Shown piece after piece: positions 1-11,928 of a DNA stretch of 17,675 nucleotides. Position 1 is the stretch's first letter. The number at the start of each line of letters is the position of its first letter. A program made the position numbers and the translations under genes. Source of the stretch: a virus; UHGV virus genome UHGV-0262902; one strand, written 5' to 3'. A model generated the notes under the pieces. It saw nothing but the letters and a program-made list of their open reading frames with translations, searched no databases and was not told where the DNA came from.

Positions 1-3
1 TCC

Positions 4-136
4 AATAACATTGATGGAGATCACTGAATAACAAAATGAGTCAAAAGTGATCTCCATCGATGTTATTCAGCGATCTGTTCAAATGTTATTACCCGATCTC
101 GATGGAAGTTATTGAGTGATCTCCTTTCATGAAAAT
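4..136. repeat. Iteron-like array: 22-bp inverted repeat (4-25 vs 46-67, one mismatch) followed by 23-bp direct repeats with phased GATC sites
   Basis: Read directly: GATC at 19-22, 49-52, 72-75, 95-98 and 118-121, the last four exactly 23 bp apart; TGTTATT at 61-67 and 84-90, AGTTATT at 107-113; approximate unit agNGATCtcN6TGTTATT. No ORF spans it (stops in all + frames by position 30). Confidence 0.6.
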
Positions 137-217
137 ACGCAGGCGGCACGCCGGTCAGTGAGGGTGAATCACCTGACACTGCACCGGCGTCCACCGCCCG
201 ACTTTTCAGAGGTAGTC

Positions 218-727
218 ATGATGACGCTGATTATTCCGCGAAAGGAGGCTCCCGTGTCCGGTGAGGGTACGGTGGTCATCCCGCAACCGGCAGGCGACGA
301 GCCGGTGATTAAAAACACGTTCTTTTTTCCCGATATCGACCCGAAGCGCGTCCGGGAACGTATGCGCCTTGAGCAGACCGTCGCCCCCGCCCGTCTGCGT
401 GAGGCCATCAAGTCAGGCATGGCGGAGACGAATGCGGAGCTGTACGAGTACCGCGAACAGAAAATTGCCGCCGGTTTTACGCGTCTGGCGGACGTCCCGG
501 CGGACGACATCGACGGTGAAAGCATCAAGGTTTTTTACTACGAGCGCGCCGTGTGTGCGATGGCGACCGCGTCGCTTTATGAGCGTTACCGCGGCGTGGA
601 TGCCAGTGCGAAAGGCGACAAGAAGGCTGACAGCATTGACAGCACCATCGATGAACTGTGGCGGGATATGCGCTGGGCGGTGGCGCGTATCCAGGACAAG
701 CCGCGCTGCATCGTGAGTCAAATCTGA
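218..727 (+). CDS. L: Head completion/stabilization protein gpL (169 aa)
   Basis: ATG at 218 after GAGG at 209-212; product begins MMTLIIPRKEAPVSGEG, matching P2 gpL from memory in sequence and length. The ORF-track start at 116 is a GTG extension through the repeat region. Confidence 0.85.
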   Translation: MMTLIIPRKEAPVSGEGTVVIPQPAGDEPVIKNTFFFPDIDPKRVRERMRLEQTVAPARLREAIKSGMAETNAELYEYREQKIAAGFTRLADVPADDIDGESIKVFYYERAVCAMATASLYERYRGVDASAKGDKKADSIDSTIDELWRDMRWAVARIQDKPRCIVSQI

Positions 728-930
728 TGAAGACCTTTGCGCTACAGGGCGACACGCTCGACGCCATTTGTGTCCGGTATTACGGGCGCACTGAGGGCGT
801 GGTTGAGACCGTGCTCGCCGCAAATCCGGGACTGGCTGAACTGGGTGTGGTGCTGCCACACGGCACCGCCGTCGAACTGCCCGATGTTCAGACCGCGCCC
901 GTGGCTGAAACTGTCAATCTGTGGGAGTAA
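727..930 (+). CDS. X: Tail protein X (67 aa)
   Basis: ATG at 727 overlaps the L stop (TGATG); product MKTFALQGDTLDAICVRYYG... fits P2 gpX in length and position. Confidence 0.8.
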   Translation: MKTFALQGDTLDAICVRYYGRTEGVVETVLAANPGLAELGVVLPHGTAVELPDVQTAPVAETVNLWE

Positions 931-933
931 CGC

Positions 934-1215
934 ATGACAGCAGAAGAAAAAAGCGTCCTGTCGCTTTTCATGATTGGGGTGCTGATTGTTGTCGGCAAGG
1001 TGCTTGCCGGTGGTGAACCCATCACCCCGCGTCTGTTTATCGGGCGCATGTTGCTCGGTGGTTTTGTCTCGATGGTTGCCGGTGTTGTTCTGGTGCAGTT
1101 TCCTGACCTGTCACTGCCTGCGGTGTGCGGCATCGGCTCCATGCTGGGTATCGCCGGTTATCAGGTGATTGAGATTGCCATTCAGCGCCGCTTTAAGGGC
1201 AGGGGGAAACCGTAA
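934..1215 (+). CDS. Y: Holin (93 aa)
   Basis: Small protein with hydrophobic segments (LSLFMIGVLIVVGKVLAGG, GGFVSMVAGVVLVQF) and a basic C-terminus, sitting immediately before the endolysin gene; matches P2 Y in size and position. Confidence 0.8.
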   Translation: MTAEEKSVLSLFMIGVLIVVGKVLAGGEPITPRLFIGRMLLGGFVSMVAGVVLVQFPDLSLPAVCGIGSMLGIAGYQVIEIAIQRRFKGRGKP

Positions 1216-3140: not shown

Positions 3141-3585
3141 GTTTAAGCGTTTTGAAGACCGGCTGACCGGACTGATTGAATCGCTGTCACCGTCAGGGCG
3201 TCGGCGACTGAGTGCCGAACTGGCGAAACGTCTGCGGCAGAGTCAGCAGCGTCGGGTGATGGCTCAGAAAGCCCCGGACGGCACACCCTACGCGCCACGC
3301 CAGCAGCAGAGCGCCAGAAAAAAGACTGGTCGTGTTAAGCGAAAAATGTTTGCGAAACTTATCACCAGTCGTTTTTTGCATATCCGCGCCAGCCCGGAAC
3401 AGGCATCAATGGAGTTTTACGGCGGGAAGTCACCGAAAATCGCCAGTGTGCATCAGTTCGGTCTGTCGGAAGAAAACCGGAAAGACGGTAAGAAAATTGA
3501 TTATCCGGCGCGTCCCCTGCTCGGCTTTACCGGTGAGGATGTGCAGATGATTGAAGAGATTATTCTGGCTCACCTCGACCGTTAG
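3133..3585 (+). CDS. S: Tail completion protein gpS (150 aa)
   Basis: ATG at 3133 overlapping the R stop; length and position match P2 S. Confidence 0.85.
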   Translation: MNEFKRFEDRLTGLIESLSPSGRRRLSAELAKRLRQSQQRRVMAQKAPDGTPYAPRQQQSARKKTGRVKRKMFAKLITSRFLHIRASPEQASMEFYGGKSPKIASVHQFGLSEENRKDGKKIDYPARPLLGFTGEDVQMIEEIILAHLDR

Positions 3586-3651
3586 TTGTGCCATTCCCGA
3601 CACCTCATCGTTACATTGCCGCCGGTATGACCCGGCGGCATCCTTCCCGTT

Positions 3652-4287
3652 ATGAACACTCTCGCAAATATCCAGGAACTCGCGCGCGCACTGCGCAACA
3701 TGATCCGCACCGGCCTTGTCGTCGAAACCAACCTTAAAGCCGGTCGCTGCCGTGTGCAGACCGGCGGCATGTGCACCGACTGGCTTCAGTGGCTGACCTG
3801 TCGTGCCGGGCGTTCGCGCACATGGTGGGCGCCTTCCGTGGGGGAGCAGGTGCTGATTCTGGCCGTGGGCGGTGAACTTGACACGGCGTTTGTTCTGCCG
3901 GGGATTTATTCCGGCGATAACCCCGCGCCGTCTGCGTCGGCGGATGCCCTGCATATCCGTTTCCCTGACGGGGCGGTGATTGAGTATGAACCCGAAACCA
4001 GTGCACTCACGGTAAGCGGAATTAAAACGGCCAGCGTGACGGCTTCTGATTCTGTTACTGCCACGGTGCCGGTGGTCATGGTGAAAGCATCAACCCGCGT
4101 CACTCTGGACACGCCGGAGGTGGTCTGCACAAACAAGCTGATCACCGGCACGCTGGAAGTGCAGAAGGGCGGGACGATGCGCGGCAACATTGAACACACC
4201 GGCGGTGAACTCTCATCAAACGGTAAGGTACTGCATACCCATAAACACCCCGGCGACAGCGGCGGCACAACCGGGGGACCTATATGA
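3652..4287 (+). CDS. V: Baseplate central spike gpV (211 aa)
   Basis: First gene of the baseplate block; length matches P2 gpV; stop overlaps W start. Confidence 0.85.
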   Translation: MNTLANIQELARALRNMIRTGLVVETNLKAGRCRVQTGGMCTDWLQWLTCRAGRSRTWWAPSVGEQVLILAVGGELDTAFVLPGIYSGDNPAPSASADALHIRFPDGAVIEYEPETSALTVSGIKTASVTASDSVTATVPVVMVKASTRVTLDTPEVVCTNKLITGTLEVQKGGTMRGNIEHTGGELSSNGKVLHTHKHPGDSGGTTGGPI

Positions 4288-4631
4288 CAGCGCGTTATCT
4301 CGGAATGAATCGCAGTGATGGCCTGACTGTCACTGACCTTGAGCATATCAGCCAGAGTATCGGCGATATCCTGCGCACACCGGTCGGCTCACGGGTGATG
4401 CGTCGTGATTACGGCTCGTTGCTGGCGTCAATGATTGACCAGCCGCAGACCCCGGCGCTTGAGTTGCAGATTAAGGTCGCCTGTTACATGTCCGTGCTGA
4501 AATGGGAACCCCGCGTCACCCTGTCATCCGTCACCACTGAGCGCAGTTTTGACGGGCGAATGACGGTCACGTTAACCGGTCAGCACAACGACACCGGCCA
4601 GCCACTTTCGTTAACCATCCCTGTGAGTTGA
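4284..4631 (+). CDS. W: Baseplate wedge protein gpW (gp25-like; 115 aa)
   Basis: Length and position match P2 gpW between V and J. Confidence 0.85.
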   Translation: MTARYLGMNRSDGLTVTDLEHISQSIGDILRTPVGSRVMRRDYGSLLASMIDQPQTPALELQIKVACYMSVLKWEPRVTLSSVTTERSFDGRMTVTLTGQHNDTGQPLSLTIPVS

Positions 4632-4635
4632 AACC

Positions 4636-5544
4636 ATGCCGATTATCGACCTGAACCAGCTACCCGCACCGGATGTGGTCGAGGAGCTGGACTTTGAAAC
4701 CATTCTCGCTGAACGCAAGGCGACACTGATTTCCCTTTACCCGGAAGACCAGCAGGAGGCGGTCGCCCGTACCCTGACGCTGGAATCCGAGCCTCTCGTC
4801 AAACTGCTGGAGGAAAATGCTTATCGTGAGCTTATCTGGCGTCAGCGTGTGAATGAGGCCGCACGGGCGGTGATGCTGGCCTGTGCCGCCGGTAATGACC
4901 TTGATGTGATTGGTGCCAATTACAACACCACGCGCCTGATTATCACCCCGGCAGATGATTCGACCCTCCCGCCGACACCGGCAGTGATGGAATCTGATAC
5001 CGATTATCGTCTGCGTATTCAGCAGGCGTTTGAAGGTTTAAGCGTCGCCGGGTCGGTGGGGGCCTATCAGTATCATGGTCGCAGTGCCGACGGGCGTGTC
5101 GCGGATATTTCTGTCACCAGTCCGTCTCCGGCCTGCGTCACCATCTCTGTGCTGTCACGTGAAAATAACGGTGTGGCATCCGAAGACCTGCTGGCCGTGG
5201 TGCGTAACGCCCTTAATGGCGAGGACGTCAGGCCGGTGGCCGACCGCGTGACCGTGCAGTCTGCCGCCATTGTTGAATACCAGATAAACGCCACGCTTTA
5301 CCTTTACCCTGGTCCCGAAAGCGAACCCATCCGCGCTGCTGCCGTGAAAAAACTGGAAGCGTACATCACGGCGCAGCACCGGCTGGGGCGCGACATCCGT
5401 CTGTCTGCCATTTATGCCGCTTTGCATGTGGAAGGCGTGCAGCGTGTCGAGCTGGCCGCACCACTGGCCGACATTGTGCTCAACAGTACGCAGGCGTCTT
5501 TCTGTACCGAATACCGCGTCGTGACCGGAGGCTCGGATGAGTGA
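4636..5544 (+). CDS. J: Baseplate assembly protein gpJ (302 aa)
   Basis: Length and position match P2 gpJ; 3' end overlaps the I start. Confidence 0.85.
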   Translation: MPIIDLNQLPAPDVVEELDFETILAERKATLISLYPEDQQEAVARTLTLESEPLVKLLEENAYRELIWRQRVNEAARAVMLACAAGNDLDVIGANYNTTRLIITPADDSTLPPTPAVMESDTDYRLRIQQAFEGLSVAGSVGAYQYHGRSADGRVADISVTSPSPACVTISVLSRENNGVASEDLLAVVRNALNGEDVRPVADRVTVQSAAIVEYQINATLYLYPGPESEPIRAAAVKKLEAYITAQHRLGRDIRLSAIYAALHVEGVQRVELAAPLADIVLNSTQASFCTEYRVVTGGSDE

Positions 5545-6067
5545 TTCGCGCCTGCTGCCGACCGGCTCATCACCGCTTGAAGTCGCCGCCGCAAAAGCCT
5601 GTGCGGAAATTGAAAAAACGCCGGCCAGTATTCGTGAGCTGTGGAACCCGGACACCTGCCCGGCAAATCTGCTGCCGTGGCTGGCGTGGGCGTTTTCGGT
5701 CGACAGGTGGGATGAAAAGTGGCCGGAAGCGACAAAACGCGCCGTTATCCGCGATGCCTATTTCATCCACTGTCATAAAGGCACTATAGGCGCAATCCGG
5801 CGTGTGGTGGAGCCGCTCGGCTATCTCATCAACGTGACGGAGTGGTGGGAAAACAGTGACCCGCCCGGCACCTTCCGGCTTGATATTGGTGTACTGGAAA
5901 GCGGTATCACAGAGGCAATGTATCAGGAAATGGAACGGCTGATTGCCGATGCCAAACCTGCAAGCCGTCACCTTATTGGTCTGAACATTACCCGGGACAT
6001 TCCCGGCTACCTGTTCGCCGGTGGTGTGGCTTACGACGGCGATGTAATTACGGTTTACCCCGGATAA
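5537..6067 (+). CDS. I: Baseplate protein gpI (176 aa)
   Basis: Length and position match P2 gpI, directly upstream of tail-fibre gene H. Confidence 0.85.
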   Translation: MSDSRLLPTGSSPLEVAAAKACAEIEKTPASIRELWNPDTCPANLLPWLAWAFSVDRWDEKWPEATKRAVIRDAYFIHCHKGTIGAIRRVVEPLGYLINVTEWWENSDPPGTFRLDIGVLESGITEAMYQEMERLIADAKPASRHLIGLNITRDIPGYLFAGGVAYDGDVITVYPG

Positions 6068-6077
6068 GTGAGGAAGA

Positions 6078-8075
6078 ATGAGCACAAAATTCAGAACCGT
6101 TATCACCACTGCCGGTGCAGCAAAGCTGGCAGCGGCAACCGCGCCGGGAGGGCGGAAGGTCAACATTACCACGATGGCCGTCGGGGATGGAGGTGGTAAA
6201 TTGCCTGTCCCGGATGCCGGACAGACCGGGCTTATCCATGAAGTCTGGCGACATGCGCTGAACAAAATCAGCCAGGACAAACGAAACAGTAATTATATTA
6301 TCGCAGAGCTGGTTATTCCGCCGGAGGTGGGCGGTTTCTGGATGCGTGAGCTTGGCCTGTACGATGATGCGGGAACATTAATTGCCGTGGCGAACATGGC
6401 CGAAAGTTATAAGCCAGCTCTTGCCGAAGGCTCAGGGCGTTCGCAGACCTGTCGCATGGTCATCATCGTCAGCAGTGTGGCCTCAGTGGCGCTGACCATT
6501 GACACCACAGCGGTGATGGCGACGCAGGATTACGTTGATGACAAAATTGCAGAGCATGGACAGTCACGACGTCACCCGGACGCCTCGCTGACCGCAAAAG
6601 GTTTTACTCAGTTAAGCAATGCGACCAACAGCACGTCTGAAACACTGGCCGCAACGCCGAAAGCGGTAAAGGCCGCGTATGATCTTGCTAACGGGAAATA
6701 CACTGCGCAGGATGCCACCACAGCGCGAAAAGGCCTTGTCCAGCTCAGTAGCGCCACCAACAGCACGTCTGAAACGCTCGCCGCAACACCAAAAGCGGTA
6801 AAGGCAGCATATGACCTTGCTAATGGGAAATACACTGCACAGGACGCCACCACAGCGCGAAAAGGTCTTGTCCAGCTCAGTAGCGCCACCAACAGCGATT
6901 CTGAAACGCTTGCGGCAACGCCAAAGGCGGTTAAGACAGCGTATGACCTTGCTAACGGAAAATACACTGCACAGGACGCCACCACGGCGCGGAAAGGTCT
7001 TGTTCAGCTCAATAGTGCCATCAACAGCGATTCTGAAACGCTGGCTGCAACACCAAAAGCGGTGAAGTCTGCCTATGACAATGCTGAAAAACGTCTTCAG
7101 AAAGATCAAAATGGCGCGGATATTCCTGATAAAAGATTATTCCTGCGCAATATTGGAGCAACAAATTCAACAACCATGTCTTTTAGTGGTGGTACAGGAT
7201 GGTTCAGGCTGGCAACTGTAACCATGCCACAGGCCAGTTCCGTGGTTTACATAAGTCTGATTGGTGGTGCTGGATATAATGTTAACTCCCCTATGCAGGC
7301 TGGTATATCTGAACTTGTTCTTCGTGCGGGAAATGGAAATCCAAAAGGTCTTACTGGTGCGTTATGGCGACGGACATCGGTTGGATTTACTAATTTTGCA
7401 TGGGTGAATACATCCGGTGATACCTATGATGTTTATGTTGAAATAGGTAATTACGCCACAGGTGTTAATATTCAGTGGGATTATACCAGTAACGCCAGCG
7501 TAACGATTCATACATCACCAACTTATACAGCGAATAAACCAACAGGTCTTACAGATGGAACTGTATATGTAATTTACAGTTCGCACATTAAACCGACTGC
7601 TGCTGATGTTGGGGCGTTGTCATTATCTGGAGGTCAATTGAATGGTGCACTGGGCATCGGAACATCCAGTGTTCTTGGCGGTAACTCAATTGTTTTGGGT
7701 GATAATGACACGGGCTTTAAACAAAATGGTGACGGTAATCTGGATGTTTATGCTAATAACGTTCATGTTATGCGCTTTGTCTCCGGTAGCATTCAAAGTA
7801 ATAAAACCATAAATATTACGGGTCGTGTTAATCCCACAGATTACGGTAACTTTGATTCCCGCTATGTCCGGGATATCCGGCTTGGTGGTGCTGCCACATA
7901 CAAACCTGCGAACAATGGCATGACATGGACACATCAGGCACCGTCCGGGTGTGTATATTCCGGCATTATTATTCAGGATACCGGCTCAAACTCTGCCGAT
8001 AACATTGGTGGCGTATATTACAGACCGGTGCAGAAATACATTAACGGGACATGGTATAACGTGGCACAGGTATAA
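6078..8075 (+). CDS. H: Tail fibre protein gpH (665 aa) with internal tandem repeats and an AT-richer distal domain
   Basis: GGAAG before ATG 6078; conserved-looking N-terminus; four 44-aa repeats in the shaft; the region from about 7100 on is visibly lower in GC, as expected for a swapped receptor-binding module. Confidence 0.85.
   Translation: MSTKFRTVITTAGAAKLAAATAPGGRKVNITTMAVGDGGGKLPVPDAGQTGLIHEVWRHALNKISQDKRNSNYIIAELVIPPEVGGFWMRELGLYDDAGTLIAVANMAESYKPALAEGSGRSQTCRMVIIVSSVASVALTIDTTAVMATQDYVDDKIAEHGQSRRHPDASLTAKGFTQLSNATNSTSETLAATPKAVKAAYDLANGKYTAQDATTARKGLVQLSSATNSTSETLAATPKAVKAAYDLANGKYTAQDATTARKGLVQLSSATNSDSETLAATPKAVKTAYDLANGKYTAQDATTARKGLVQLNSAINSDSETLAATPKAVKSAYDNAEKRLQKDQNGADIPDKRLFLRNIGATNSTTMSFSGGTGWFRLATVTMPQASSVVYISLIGGAGYNVNSPMQAGISELVLRAGNGNPKGLTGALWRRTSVGFTNFAWVNTSGDTYDVYVEIGNYATGVNIQWDYTSNASVTIHTSPTYTANKPTGLTDGTVYVIYSSHIKPTAADVGALSLSGGQLNGALGIGTSSVLGGNSIVLGDNDTGFKQNGDGNLDVYANNVHVMRFVSGSIQSNKTINITGRVNPTDYGNFDSRYVRDIRLGGAATYKPANNGMTWTHQAPSGCVYSGIIIQDTGSNSADNIGGVYYRPVQKYINGTWYNVAQV
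6597..7095 (+). repeat. Four tandem in-frame 132-bp (44-aa) repeats inside H
   Basis: Repeat anchors AAAGG at 6597, 6729, 6861 and 6993, each exactly 132 bp apart; peptide unit approx KGLVQLSSATNSTSETLAATPKAVKAAYDLANGKYTAQDATTAR; the fourth copy degenerates after ...AYDNAEKR. Confidence 0.85.
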
Positions 8076-8078
8076 TTT

Positions 8079-8606
8079 ATGCAGCATTTAAAAAATATTA
8101 CGGTGGGTAATCCAAAAACGGTTGAACAATATCAATTGACAAAGGGCTTTGATGTTGTCTGGTTTTTTACAGAAGATGGTAAGAACTGGTACGAAGAACA
8201 AAAGTATTTTGCTGATGACACGATAAAAATAGCGTACGACAAAGATAATATCATCCGCTATGTGGAAAAGGATGTGACAGCTATCAGACCGGATGGATTA
8301 AGTGTGGTTGAAGTGGCGGATATTACTGCTAACCGACGGGCGGATATTTCAGGGGGCTGGATGTTTAAGGACGGCAAAGTGATTAAACGCATTTATACGG
8401 CAGAGGAATTACAGCAGCAGGCAGAAATTCGGAAAGCCAGACTTCTTGCAGATGCTGAATCCGTGATTTTGCCGCTGGAGCGCGCGGTCAGACTGAACAT
8501 GGCAACAGAGGAGGAGCGCACACGGCTGGAGGCTTGGGAACGCTACAGCGTTCTGGTCAGTCGTGTGGATCCTGCAAATCCTGAATGGCCGGAAATGCCG
8601 CAATAA
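8079..8606 (+). CDS. G: Tail fibre assembly chaperone gpG (175 aa)
   Basis: Immediately downstream of H (4-nt gap); length matches P2 gpG; AT-rich like the distal part of H. Confidence 0.8.
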
Positions 8607-8859
8607 GTTGTATGAACTCTGGTGTGAGCTTACATATCTATGGCACAGAGTAAAGCCTAATCTGACAGTCCGCTCTGTGCCAAAAGCGGGCGTTGATCAC
8701 ATGGGCTATGCTAACCCATTATAACAGTGTAACAGAGCTACCCACGATTACTCCCGGCCTCTAAAGTTTGCTACATAATAAAGAATCATTCCCTTTAATC
8801 TGATCTTAGCGGTATAGTATCTGGTGACCAGTAAGACAATCACCGACACTACAATCATG

Positions 8860-8887
8860 TTGATTTGCATTGTGTTTAGTCTAAAAT
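8860..8887 (+). promoter_or_regulatory. Candidate sigma70 promoter for the cargo operon
   Basis: TTGATT at 8860-8865, 16-nt spacer, TAAAAT at 8882-8887, about 50 bp upstream of the cargo gene start. Hexamer match only; other AT-rich matches exist nearby. Confidence 0.3.
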
Positions 8888-8936
8888 TGTGGTGCGAAAA
8901 GACCAATGAAAGTTATTGATAATAAGGAGGAATCAA

Positions 8937-9722
8937 ATGTCAGGAATAAGATGGTTGGATAAAAAAGATTTAATCCTTAAAGGAATAAATGAAGGCACCT
9001 ACCCAGAATCAGTTTACAAGTTCAGAACTATAGATAAAGCCTGTGATATTCTTCAAAAAAAAGAATTTTACTTTTCATCAGCGGAAAATTTTAATGATCC
9101 ATTTGATTGTATGCTGGATGAGGAAAAAGAATACTCTTTATCAGACTTTACTTGTTGGTTATATTCATATCAGAATGGATTAACCAAGAAGGCAAAGCAG
9201 AACTTAATAGATGTGTATAAAGAAAACAGCCAAGCATTTAATGATCTAGTTAAAAATATAAAAACAAAAGCCGTCAATGCCCATGGCATTTTATCGCTAT
9301 CTAAAACTAATGAAAATGTTCTTTTATGGTCTCATTATGCGGAGAACCATACCGGAGTTGCTATAAAACTCAATATTGCTAAGGATCCAGAGTTCTTTAT
9401 AACCCCCCAAAACATAGTATATATGAAGCAATATATTCCATTAAATTATCTTAGAGACCCTAAAAAATCAATACTCGACACACTCTCTACGAAATCAATG
9501 GATTGGAATTATGAAGAGGAGATTAGAGTTTATAAAAGTAATATTGGAGCCTATAAGATTAAGCCAGAGGCAATAACTGATGTTTTTTTTGGTTTGAAAA
9601 CGCTGGAACAGGATATTGCAAAAATCAAAAATATATGTAGTGAAAATGGTCTAAGCCATGTGAAGTTTCATCGGGCTGAAAAAAAATATGGAGAATTTGC
9701 GCTACGTTTTAATCCTATTTGA
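8937..9722 (+). CDS. Cargo protein A: DUF2971-like protein of unknown function (261 aa)
   Basis: Consensus SD AAGGAGG at 8924-8930, 6-nt spacer, ATG 8937. AT-rich codon usage. Motifs YKFR (27-30), FYFSSAENFNDPFDC (44-58) and LLWSHYAENHTGVAIK (129-144) resemble the DUF2971 signature as I remember it; no characterised function is known to me. Confidence 0.7.
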   Translation: MSGIRWLDKKDLILKGINEGTYPESVYKFRTIDKACDILQKKEFYFSSAENFNDPFDCMLDEEKEYSLSDFTCWLYSYQNGLTKKAKQNLIDVYKENSQAFNDLVKNIKTKAVNAHGILSLSKTNENVLLWSHYAENHTGVAIKLNIAKDPEFFITPQNIVYMKQYIPLNYLRDPKKSILDTLSTKSMDWNYEEEIRVYKSNIGAYKIKPEAITDVFFGLKTLEQDIAKIKNICSENGLSHVKFHRAEKKYGEFALRFNPI

Positions 9723-9808
9723 CTTTTCTATTTAGTAGTTAAATGATAGTGCATTACGGGCCAATTAAATTTAATTCTATGGTTGTGTAGACAATAAAAG
9801 GTAACTAG

Positions 9809-10294
9809 ATGAATCAAGATGAGTTAAAAAATTTTTGTGTTGATGTGCGTGAAGCACTTGAGAAGATGACCAAAAAAGATCATTCACGGCTGTCATCCTT
9901 TAGAAATTCGAACTTTCCAGTGGGATGCTGCGGAGATACATCGAAACTGCTTGCTTATTTGCTTTATCAGCAATTCGGGATAGTCTCTGAAGTACTCGCA
10001 GGATATTACTATGAATCTGATCATAAGTCCCCCGCCAGCGGTCTTTCAAACGGTAATTCACATGCTTGGCTTGTCGTGGATGGAATGATTGTTGATTTGA
10101 CTGCAGATCAGTTCAACGACCGGGGATATAACAATCTTCCCGTCATGATTACATCAGACACTAGGTTTCATGACCTCTTTGCCAATCGTAATGCCTCGTT
10201 TCAACCTTCTCAAGGTAATGAAATTATTCTACCTGATATTCTAAAAATGACAGCATCACATGTGCAGCAAAGGCTTAAAGAGCGAGGTTGGTAA
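9809..10294 (+). CDS. Cargo protein B: small protein with transglutaminase/papain-like Cys-His-Asp motif arrangement (161 aa)
   Basis: ATG 9809 after a weak AAGG; AT-rich. Motifs G-C-C-G-D (Cys40/41), S-H-A-W-LVVDG (His85) and VDLTADQ (Asp96/Asp100) appear in the order and spacing typical of transglutaminase-like cysteine peptidase cores. Assignment is motif-based only. Confidence 0.6.
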   Translation: MNQDELKNFCVDVREALEKMTKKDHSRLSSFRNSNFPVGCCGDTSKLLAYLLYQQFGIVSEVLAGYYYESDHKSPASGLSNGNSHAWLVVDGMIVDLTADQFNDRGYNNLPVMITSDTRFHDLFANRNASFQPSQGNEIILPDILKMTASHVQQRLKERGW

Positions 10295-10613
10295 TGCGGG
10301 TGCAGCAGAATCTAAAGCTGATACTTAAAATTATATAGGAAGAGCATAAACTTATCCTAAATCTGGCTGTAATAGATCCTTTCATATATCGGCCAGATTA
10401 ATATGAAGTAATCCAAATTAGTGTCTGAAAATATAATCAGCTCCATAACAATAGATTTATCGCTTAAAAATAACGTCAACATGAGGGTAGAAAACATCCC
10501 TAAAGATAAGTCTGGTCTAACCTTTGCTCCTCGCTCAAAGCAGACTGTCAGAATTGATAGCGTTTGGGCTATGTAAATTGTCAGTCGGAAAATGAGTGAG
10601 TACAAATCAGGAC

Positions 10614-10641
10614 AGGCGGGCGAATTGCCCGCCTTTTCTTT
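10614..10641 (+). terminator. Rho-independent terminator closing the cargo region, upstream of FI
   Basis: Stem GGCGGGC (10615-10621), loop GAATT, stem GCCCGCC (10627-10633), then TTTTCTTT. The reverse strand lacks a T-run, so it is oriented for the + strand. Confidence 0.7.
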
Positions 10642-10737
10642 ATCTGTTGTTTCATCCACTGACCAGTCAGGTCAAATAGCGTCTCATGCTCTGCACAACA
10701 GAAAATAGTTGCACCCATTAACCACGGAGTTAAACGG

Positions 10738-11928
10738 ATGAGTGACTATCATCACGGCGTGCAGGTTCTGGAAATTAACGACGGCACCCGTGTCATTTCC
10801 ACCGTATCCACTGCCATTGTCGGCATGGTCTGCACGGCCAGCGATGCGGATGCGGAAACCTTCCCCCTCAATAAACCTGTGCTGATTACCAATGTGCAGA
10901 GCGCAATTGCAAAGGCCGGTAAAAAAGGCACGCTGGCGGCATCGTTGCAGGCCATCGCCGACCAGTCAAAACCGGTCACCGTTGTCGTGCGTGTGGAAGA
11001 CGGCACCGGCGACGATGAAGAAACGAAACTCGCGCAGACCGTGTCCAATATCATCGGCACCACCGACGAAAACGGCCAGTACACCGGACTGAAAGCCCTG
11101 CTGGCGGCGGAGTCGGTAACCGGTGTTAAACCGCGTATTCTCGGAGTGCCGGGACTGGATACCAAAGAGGTGGCTGTTGCACTGGCATCAGTCTGTCAGA
11201 AGCTGCGCGCTTTCGGGTATATCAGCGCATGGGGCTGTAAGACCATTTCCGAGGTGAAAGCCTACCGCCAGAATTTCAGCCAGCGTGAGCTGATGGTCAT
11301 CTGGCCGGATTTCCTCGCATGGGATACGGTCACCAGTACCACCGCCACCGCGTATGCCACCGCCCGTGCGCTGGGTCTGCGTGCCAAAATCGACCAGGAG
11401 CAGGGCTGGCATAAAACGCTGTCCAACGTCGGGGTGAACGGTGTTACCGGCATCAGCGCATCTGTATTCTGGGATTTGCAGGAGTCCGGCACCGATGCTG
11501 ACCTGCTTAACGAGTCAGGCGTCACAACACTGATTCGCCGTGACGGTTTCCGCTTCTGGGGTAACCGTACCTGCTCTGATGACCCGCTGTTCCTCTTTGA
11601 AAACTACACCCGCACCGCACAGGTACTGGCCGACACGATGGCGGAGGCGCACATGTGGGCGGTGGACAAGCCCATCACCGCAACGCTGATTCGTGACATC
11701 GTTGACGGCATCAATGCCAAATTCCGTGAGCTGAAAACAAACGGCTATATCGTGGATGCGACCTGCTGGTTTAGCGAAGAATCCAACGATGCGGAAACCC
11801 TCAAGGCCGGAAAACTGTATATCGACTACGACTATACCCCGGTGCCTCCTCTTGAAAACCTGACCCTGCGCCAGCGTATCACCGATAAATACCTGGCAAA
11901 TCTGGTCACCTCGGTTAACAGCAATTAA
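10738..11928 (+). CDS. FI: Tail sheath protein gpFI (396 aa)
   Basis: GGAG at 10726-10729 before ATG 10738; length matches P2 FI; followed by the tail tube gene. Confidence 0.9.
   Translation: MSDYHHGVQVLEINDGTRVISTVSTAIVGMVCTASDADAETFPLNKPVLITNVQSAIAKAGKKGTLAASLQAIADQSKPVTVVVRVEDGTGDDEETKLAQTVSNIIGTTDENGQYTGLKALLAAESVTGVKPRILGVPGLDTKEVAVALASVCQKLRAFGYISAWGCKTISEVKAYRQNFSQRELMVIWPDFLAWDTVTSTTATAYATARALGLRAKIDQEQGWHKTLSNVGVNGVTGISASVFWDLQESGTDADLLNESGVTTLIRRDGFRFWGNRTCSDDPLFLFENYTRTAQVLADTMAEAHMWAVDKPITATLIRDIVDGINAKFRELKTNGYIVDATCWFSEESNDAETLKAGKLYIDYDYTPVPPLENLTLRQRITDKYLANLVTSVNSN

Follow-up and report, generated by a model that had tools for sequence, protein, structure and literature searches.

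The first 141 bp of the window, that is, of the whole analysed stretch of 17,675 nt from the virus genome UHGV-0262902, are almost certainly the left terminal inverted-repeat region of ISEc12, an insertion sequence of the IS21 family, inserted in the spacer between the genes M and L of a P2-like prophage. The characteristics of the family that were found include a sharp boundary to the host sequence at a terminal 5'-TG...CA-3' (IS terminus at position 141, P2 homology from position 142), terminal repeats consisting of multiple direct units about 23 bp apart (L1-L4 in the window and R1-R2 at the other end), and istA and istB located next to each other in reference copies with an identical end. 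The element is already known, and the insertion site is previously unrecorded but unremarkable.

Layout of the repeat array

GATC sites were identified at positions 19, 49, 72, 95 and 118 of the window, with gaps of 30, 23, 23 and 23 bp. A repeat finder returned one family of direct repeats (49–76, 72–99 and 95–122; 23-bp spacing and 68–82% identity) and one inverted pair (4–25 versus 46–67; 22 nt, 95% complementary, 20 nt between the arms), and the terminal unit ending at position 141 constitutes a fourth direct unit. The remaining 17.5 kb of the window contains 17 GATC sites, which corresponds to 0.14 expected per 141 bp and gives a Poisson probability of 3.6e-7 for five or more, while base composition alone predicts 0.46 sites in 141 bp. 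The GATC counts together with the repeat families therefore demonstrate that the array is real and not a result of chance. The GATC positions, the 23-bp direct units and the 22-bp inverted repeat described in a first-pass annotation of the sequence were all confirmed, coordinates included.

The left, istA-proximal terminal region of ISEc12 occupies positions 1–141 on the minus strand, running from IS position 141 to 1 with its outer terminus, ...AATACGCA, at window position 141. The terminal repeat L1 (118–141, minus strand; IS 1–24, TGCGTATTTTCATGAAAGGAGATC) includes the cleaved end, carries the terminal 5'-TG/CA-3' and matches the terminus of the right end, TGCGTATTACCGTGAAGGAGATC. It is followed on the same strand by L2 (95–117; IS 25–47), placed by the 23-bp register and unit alignment, by L3 (72–94; IS 48–70), placed by the repeat finder and unit alignment, and by L4 (49–71; IS 71–93), the right arm of the 22-bp inverted repeat, all three with a GATC at their end. 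The left arm is formed by L5 (CCAATAACATTGATGGAGATC; 1–22, plus strand), an inward-facing inverted copy whose first base falls just outside the window. The inverted repeat of the first-pass annotation is thus L4 against L5, and its direct repeats are L1-L4.

Identification of the element

When positions 1–1200 of the window were compared with phage genomes by megablast, 135 P2-like (Peduovirus) records were obtained and, among the matches listed, every one started at query position 142. The GC content is 36% in positions 1–141 versus 60% in the next kilobase. Searched alone against phage genomes, bases 1–140 gave 100% matches only in a few lambdoid phages, PhiR12_1 and its relatives, and in PhiR12_1 the segment adjoins a gene for a 513-aa "Transposase / Integrase" followed by one for an "ATP-binding transposition helper protein". 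An identical segment is present in E. coli 64.1 and AVS0051, where RefSeq names the adjoining genes "IS21-like element ISEc12 family transposase" (istA) and "helper ATPase IstB", and the full copies that were examined all have istA/istB beside the segment. On NCBIfam NF033546 IstA reaches 310 bits (cut-off 160); it contains the Pfam domains rve and Mu-transpos_C_2 and matches, in PDB, the IS5376 IstA chains 8b4h/8q4d with an E-value of 3e-13 over residues 107–391 only. IstB, of 248 aa, scores 270 bits on NF038214 and matches PF01695 (IstB_IS21) at E 2e-67.

Of 5426 complete E. coli genomes, 1703 contain the 141-bp end, at 5097 places in total, of which 655 are on plasmids. Nearly all of them are at least 99% identical and their neighbours are mutually unrelated (IS91, trbJ, parB, ypfH, lom and others). 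These thousands of copies elsewhere identify the segment as part of a mobile element. Set against the refuting condition of the first-pass annotation, a junction common to P2-like phages with the repeats confined to it, the outcome went in the opposite direction, with copies in thousands of other places and no array at the M-L junction of related phages.

Compared with ISEc12 as annotated in E. coli by RefSeq/PGAP, the segment has the same terminus, the same units and an identical istA-proximal end, and the reference copies are flanked by a 5-bp duplication. No sequence difference was seen and only the insertion site is new, lying in the M-L spacer at a distance of 12 bp from the site used in E. 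coli 64.1.

Structure of the ISEc12 ends

The copy in E. coli 64.1 (locus L002) extends over positions 3561–6141 (2581 bp), starts with TGCGTATT, ends with AATACGCA and is flanked by the duplication GTCAG, and in AVS0051 (locus L003) ISEc12 is located inside gene M with the 5-bp duplication TATGC. The full copies have TG...CA termini and an imperfect terminal inverted repeat. With the terminal A of ...AATACGCA at window position 141, IS positions 1–141 are contained in the window, on the minus strand. In the reference copies istA, on the minus strand, has its ATG 53 bp left of the base corresponding to window position 1. No further unit occurs in these 53 bp, and the suggestion that the array might continue past the window edge was not borne out.

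A GATC-anchored count gave eight units in ISEc12: the direct units L1-L4 with GATC at IS positions 21, 44, 67 and 90, the inverted L5 with GATC at IS position 120, the direct units R1 and R2 with GATC 20 and 43 from the right end, and an inverted right-end copy with GATC at 91. The right-end sequence is TGCGTATTACCGTGAAGGAGATCGG, and in L002 the right end (3561–3665) also contains a degenerate third unit without GATC, the inward inverted unit being situated at 3645–3661. As an inverted unit is present at the right end too, both ends have an inverted copy as their innermost unit. The consensus of the units, AATAACATcGAwGGAGATCrsT, has AGATC invariant in all eight, and each unit is bipartite, consisting of AATAAC, 6 bp and GGAGATC.

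The terminal repeats of IS21-family elements contain multiple direct repeats (L1-L2, R1-R2) that are 23 bp apart, and within each repeat HTH-2 and HTH-1 of IstA read, via the major groove, two conserved blocks spaced by about one helical turn (Spinola-Amilibia et al., PMC10122671). The same study reports that integration requires two complete repeats, that IstA is an intertwined tetramer synapsing both ends as right-handed crossings, and that insertions of the family generate 5-bp duplications (PMC10122671). ISEc12 fits this pattern with its 23-bp phasing, its blocks AATAAC and GGAGATC, its TG/CA termini and its 5-bp duplications. The phasing had been taken as a property of Dam sites, but it equals the published distance between the repeats that IstA binds at IS21-family ends (PMC10122671).

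With IS21 and IS5376, ISEc12 shares istA and istB, the TG/CA termini, the 23-bp direct repeats with two blocks and the 5-bp duplications. It differs from them in having a longer IstA (513 aa versus about 400), in having four direct and one inverted unit at the left end and two direct and one inverted at the right, compared with L1-L2/R1-R2, and in its conserved blocks, which are AT-rich and contain GATC where those of IS21/IS5376 are GC-rich. Several phased transposase sites per end, in unequal numbers left and right, are likewise found in phage Mu and Tn7 (MuA and TnsB sites), whose transposases are related DDE enzymes with an AAA+ partner (discussed in PMC10122671); Mu and Tn7, however, belong to another family, have other site sequences and carry cargo and further regulators.

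Insertion site and other insertions

The L protein of 169 aa is encoded in identical form on very many contigs, and all ten that were retrieved have a 99-bp M-L spacer and no IS end. In seven of these ten contigs and in phage L-413C an empty site is present, in which ...gcgccag is followed by GGCGGCACGCCGGTCAG... exactly where the window has the IS terminus; reading across the insertion point gives ...gcgccag followed by GGCGGCACG.... From the empty-site sequence GGCGG (142–146) is therefore the expected 5-bp target-site duplication, predicted here from the one flank that is visible in the window; its second copy would lie outside. The remaining 76 bp of the native spacer (142–217, plus strand), including a long GC-rich hairpin (about 142–200), are identical to L-413C and other uninterrupted prophages and lead to gene L (218–727, plus strand; head completion protein), which matches Pfam PF05926 Phage_GPL at E 8e-55 and bears the annotation L in P2-like phages. 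The gap before L had been regarded as unusually long, but uninterrupted P2-like phages already have a spacer of 99 bp between M and L and the gap is for this reason largely native.

The exact junction, CATGAAAATACGCAGGCGGCACGCCGGTCAG, was found neither in viral contigs nor in metagenome contigs, and in the complete E. coli genomes it is absent as well, with only neighbouring insertions present. The two insertions in this window and in E. coli 64.1 are independent and located 12 bp apart in the left arm of the spacer hairpin and in the same orientation, and at least three further ISEc12 insertions are situated inside gene M in other strains. There may be a structural target preference for the spacer hairpin, the number of cases being very small. 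The native M-L spacer (L057 895–1010) folds with -50.9 kcal/mol (z -4.4), and its long hairpin (window 142–205; L057 926–990) is followed by GACTTTTCAG.

Outside E. coli, a 2511-bp contig assigned to Moraxella osloensis (L004) encodes an IstA that is 100% identical to that of E. coli ISEc12, which represents either a very recent transfer or an assembly contamination.

Relatives of ISEc12

When one genome per species was scanned, 53 loci encoding relatives were recovered. Relatives with 55–60% IstA identity occur in Psychromonadaceae, Psychrobium, Pseudoalteromonas, Aeromonas, Rheinheimera, Algicola and Paraglaciecola and have four direct units at 23 (occasionally 24) bp, with GATC at 21/44/67-68/90-91 from the left terminus and 20/43 from the right one. 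As a rule they also have, about 30 bp deeper in the element (left position ~121), an inverted copy facing inward, as well as 5-bp duplications; this inverted copy is present in the relatives from Aeromonas, Rheinheimera and Pseudoalteromonas and degenerate or missing in those from Psychromonadaceae and Psychrobium. This layout, shared by the relatives, shows that the unit architecture of the transposon ends is old and has been conserved.

GATC is kept in all gammaproteobacterial relatives examined, and in nine lineage consensuses it is the only invariant tetranucleotide, the preceding two bases varying between GA, CC, CT and TT. Distant relatives with 47–52% identity (L051 from Nitrosomonas ureae, L039 and L041, which include a Francisellaceae MAG and an unclassified MAG) have 23-bp repeats without GATC, in which the core of the repeat is instead CTGCCAC or TCGAACAC.

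Transcription signals and the istA leader

Scans of window positions 1–400 for consensus sigma-70 promoters and terminators gave no hits, and in the whole IS of L002 one promoter-like and six terminator-like sites were found, which is no more than in shuffled sequences, with none of them in the end region. With the scans at the level of shuffles, no promoter can be assigned to istA or to outward transcription towards L. An Rfam scan of window positions 1–1000 (E<=1) returned nothing.

The 202-nt istA leader folds with -62.9 kcal/mol (z -4.8) in a structure that includes a stem between L4 and L5 and a 12-bp stem. The latter, GUAUCUUUUGCC...GGUAAAGGAUAC at L002 5949–5985 (just left of window position 1, minus strand), pairs the istA Shine-Dalgarno sequence AAGGA and may act as a translational block on read-through transcripts.

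Alternative readings

In the first-pass annotation the repeats were read as an iteron-like array encoded by the phage, that is, a Dam-sensitive protein-binding array at the M-L junction regulating the late operon or replication. The repeats and their GATC phasing are indeed real and the array is located upstream of L, but it is absent from all 135 matching P2-like records and from the contigs with an identical L protein, thousands of unrelated E. coli loci carry it beside istA, its units recur in mirrored form at the opposite end of a 2.58-kb element and no replication initiator gene is adjacent. This interpretation, refuted by the comparison with empty sites, can be given practically no credence. 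The units do resemble plasmid and phage iterons (e.g. the GATC-rich P1 oriR) in being direct repeats of about 20 bp in a regular phase and putative sites for a protein, but unlike iterons they have no initiator gene and no origin context, are mirrored at two ends and exist in thousands of dispersed copies. An iteron-type replication origin was rejected on finding istA and istB as neighbours, no rep gene and the repeats mirrored at the other IS end, and a conserved element of the P2-type M-L junction was rejected since the array is lacking in the 135 records, in L-413C and in the ten contigs with identical L. The istAB neighbourhood, the mirrored right end and the empty site together exclude, besides an iteron origin of plasmid or phage type, also a MITE, a site for a DNA invertase and a conserved regulatory region of P2. 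What survives of the earlier claim is its general kind, a protein-binding array and not a spacer, as judged from the IS21 family, whereas the phage iteron or regulatory element has to give way to an ISEc12 end.

An ISEc12 end might also be truncated or solitary, a remnant left after a deletion and without a functional element upstream. Only 141 bp of the element lie in the window and terminal remnants do exist elsewhere, e.g. the 34-bp matches to window positions 108–141 beside an IS3 in FDAARGOS_1304 and in P-EibA/C, which are truncated. On the other hand the end is 100% identical to active-looking full copies, 1890 of 2145 records contain at least 80% of the 141 bp, and of the six other ISEc12 insertions seen in P2-like prophages both of the two examined are complete, and a remnant is considered quite improbable. 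Compatible with an ISEc12 end in the M-L spacer is a role at the RNA level, in which the L4/L5 hairpin and the hairpin at the ribosome binding site would block activation of istA by external promoters. The folding of the leader, with its L4/L5 stem and the stem pairing the Shine-Dalgarno sequence, speaks for such a role; against it, the inverted copy is degenerate or missing in the relatives from Psychromonadaceae and Psychrobium, and an equivalent inverted unit is found at the right end, where there is no such leader. The latter favours a protein-binding role at the DNA level, and the RNA role is regarded as unlikely.

Proposed function of the units

By analogy with IS5376, the 23-bp units of the ISEc12 end are putative IstA binding sites; in its N-terminal, DNA-binding region ISEc12 IstA gave no sequence alignment with the IS5376 protein. 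An element encoding a DDE transposase (istA) and an AAA+ helper ATPase (istB) would have entered the 99-bp M-L spacer with its istA end towards L. The bipartite units would be suited to recognition by two N-terminal helix-turn-helix domains of IstA. As in IS5376, IstA would bind the outer units at the left and right ends cooperatively, forming a tetramer in which the ends are synapsed as negatively supercoiled crossings. Cleavage would then take place at the terminal CA (window 140–141), followed by integration into IstB-bent target DNA with a 5-bp duplication. A structure published in 2024 shows target DNA bent by IstB decamers, which recruit IstA (PMC11208146). Speculatively, the inner units L3, L4 and the inverted L5, situated 57–120 bp upstream of the istA start, could be accessory or autoregulatory sites.

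The prophage and its surroundings

The "iteron-like array upstream of L" is accordingly a false lead, being the edge of a common insertion sequence with an end architecture that is already structurally understood. Beyond the IS end, the window carries a normal late region of P2 type, from L to ogr.

Within it, a low-GC island (32–40% versus about 57% around it) was observed at 8800–10700, between a tail-fibre assembly gene (8079–8606) and the sheath gene (10738–11928), the position of the Z/fun cargo hotspot in P2. The island contains an ORF at 8916–9722 (268 aa, DUF2971) that matches the PADLOC candidate defence family PDC-S31 (E 2.6e-46), an ORF at 9809–10294 with only a sub-threshold match to YunG, and a minus-strand ORF at 10357–10659 that gave no match; 10 of the 22 GATC sites of the window are located within 8568–10375. 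GC content also drops at 6800–8600, to 40–49% in the assembly gene G and the 3' portion of the tail-fibre gene H, which suggests that the receptor-binding module has been exchanged and is mosaic, a usual finding in P2-like phages.

For the prophage, an element of 2.6 kb between M and L in antisense orientation to the late operon would be likely to have a polar effect on L, so that L is probably expressed at a lower level, and the element would add about 8% to the genome to be packaged. Given the probable reduction of L and the extra genome length the prophage may be impaired.

The GATC core and Dam methylation

IS10, IS50, IS903 and IS3 are known to have ends whose activity is controlled by Dam. 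Like ISEc12, these elements have GATC within the end sequences bound by transposase, and in ISEc12 this holds for all eight putative units. They differ in that IS10, IS50, IS903 and IS3 have one or two GATC sites with a demonstrated effect of methylation, while ISEc12 has eight, one per unit, for which such an effect may be conjectured.

The GATC in each unit may make the binding of IstA or the activity of the ends sensitive to Dam and thereby couple transposition to the passage of the replication fork, in the manner of IS10 and IS50, an addition to the reading as an ISEc12 end that is possible but open to considerable doubt. It is supported by the invariance of AGATC in eight out of eight units and of GATC across nine lineages, by the conservation of the GATC positions at both ends, by the three distant relatives that keep 23-bp repeats without GATC, and by the fact that the HTH domains of IstA read the major groove (PMC10122671), into which N6-methyladenine projects. 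The conservation is, however, equally expected if GATC is simply the core of the recognition site, and the association with the host is confounded with phylogeny, with three outgroup lineages only. No paper linking the IS21 family to Dam was found in the literature searched.

An invariant GATC core in every putative IstA unit, shared by the relatives from Enterobacterales, Aeromonas, Rheinheimera, Psychromonadaceae and Pseudoalteromonas and replaced by other sequences in Nitrosomonas and Francisellaceae, makes a use of Dam possible. It may be proposed, somewhat more tentatively still, that the ISEc12 subgroup limits assembly of the transpososome to newly replicated, hemimethylated DNA by means of Dam at all transposase sites. 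If true, this would be a multi-site version of the control known from IS10 and IS50, undescribed for elements of the IS21 family, and the GATC core of every putative IstA site thus provides a testable Dam hypothesis in an IS family for which none has been reported.
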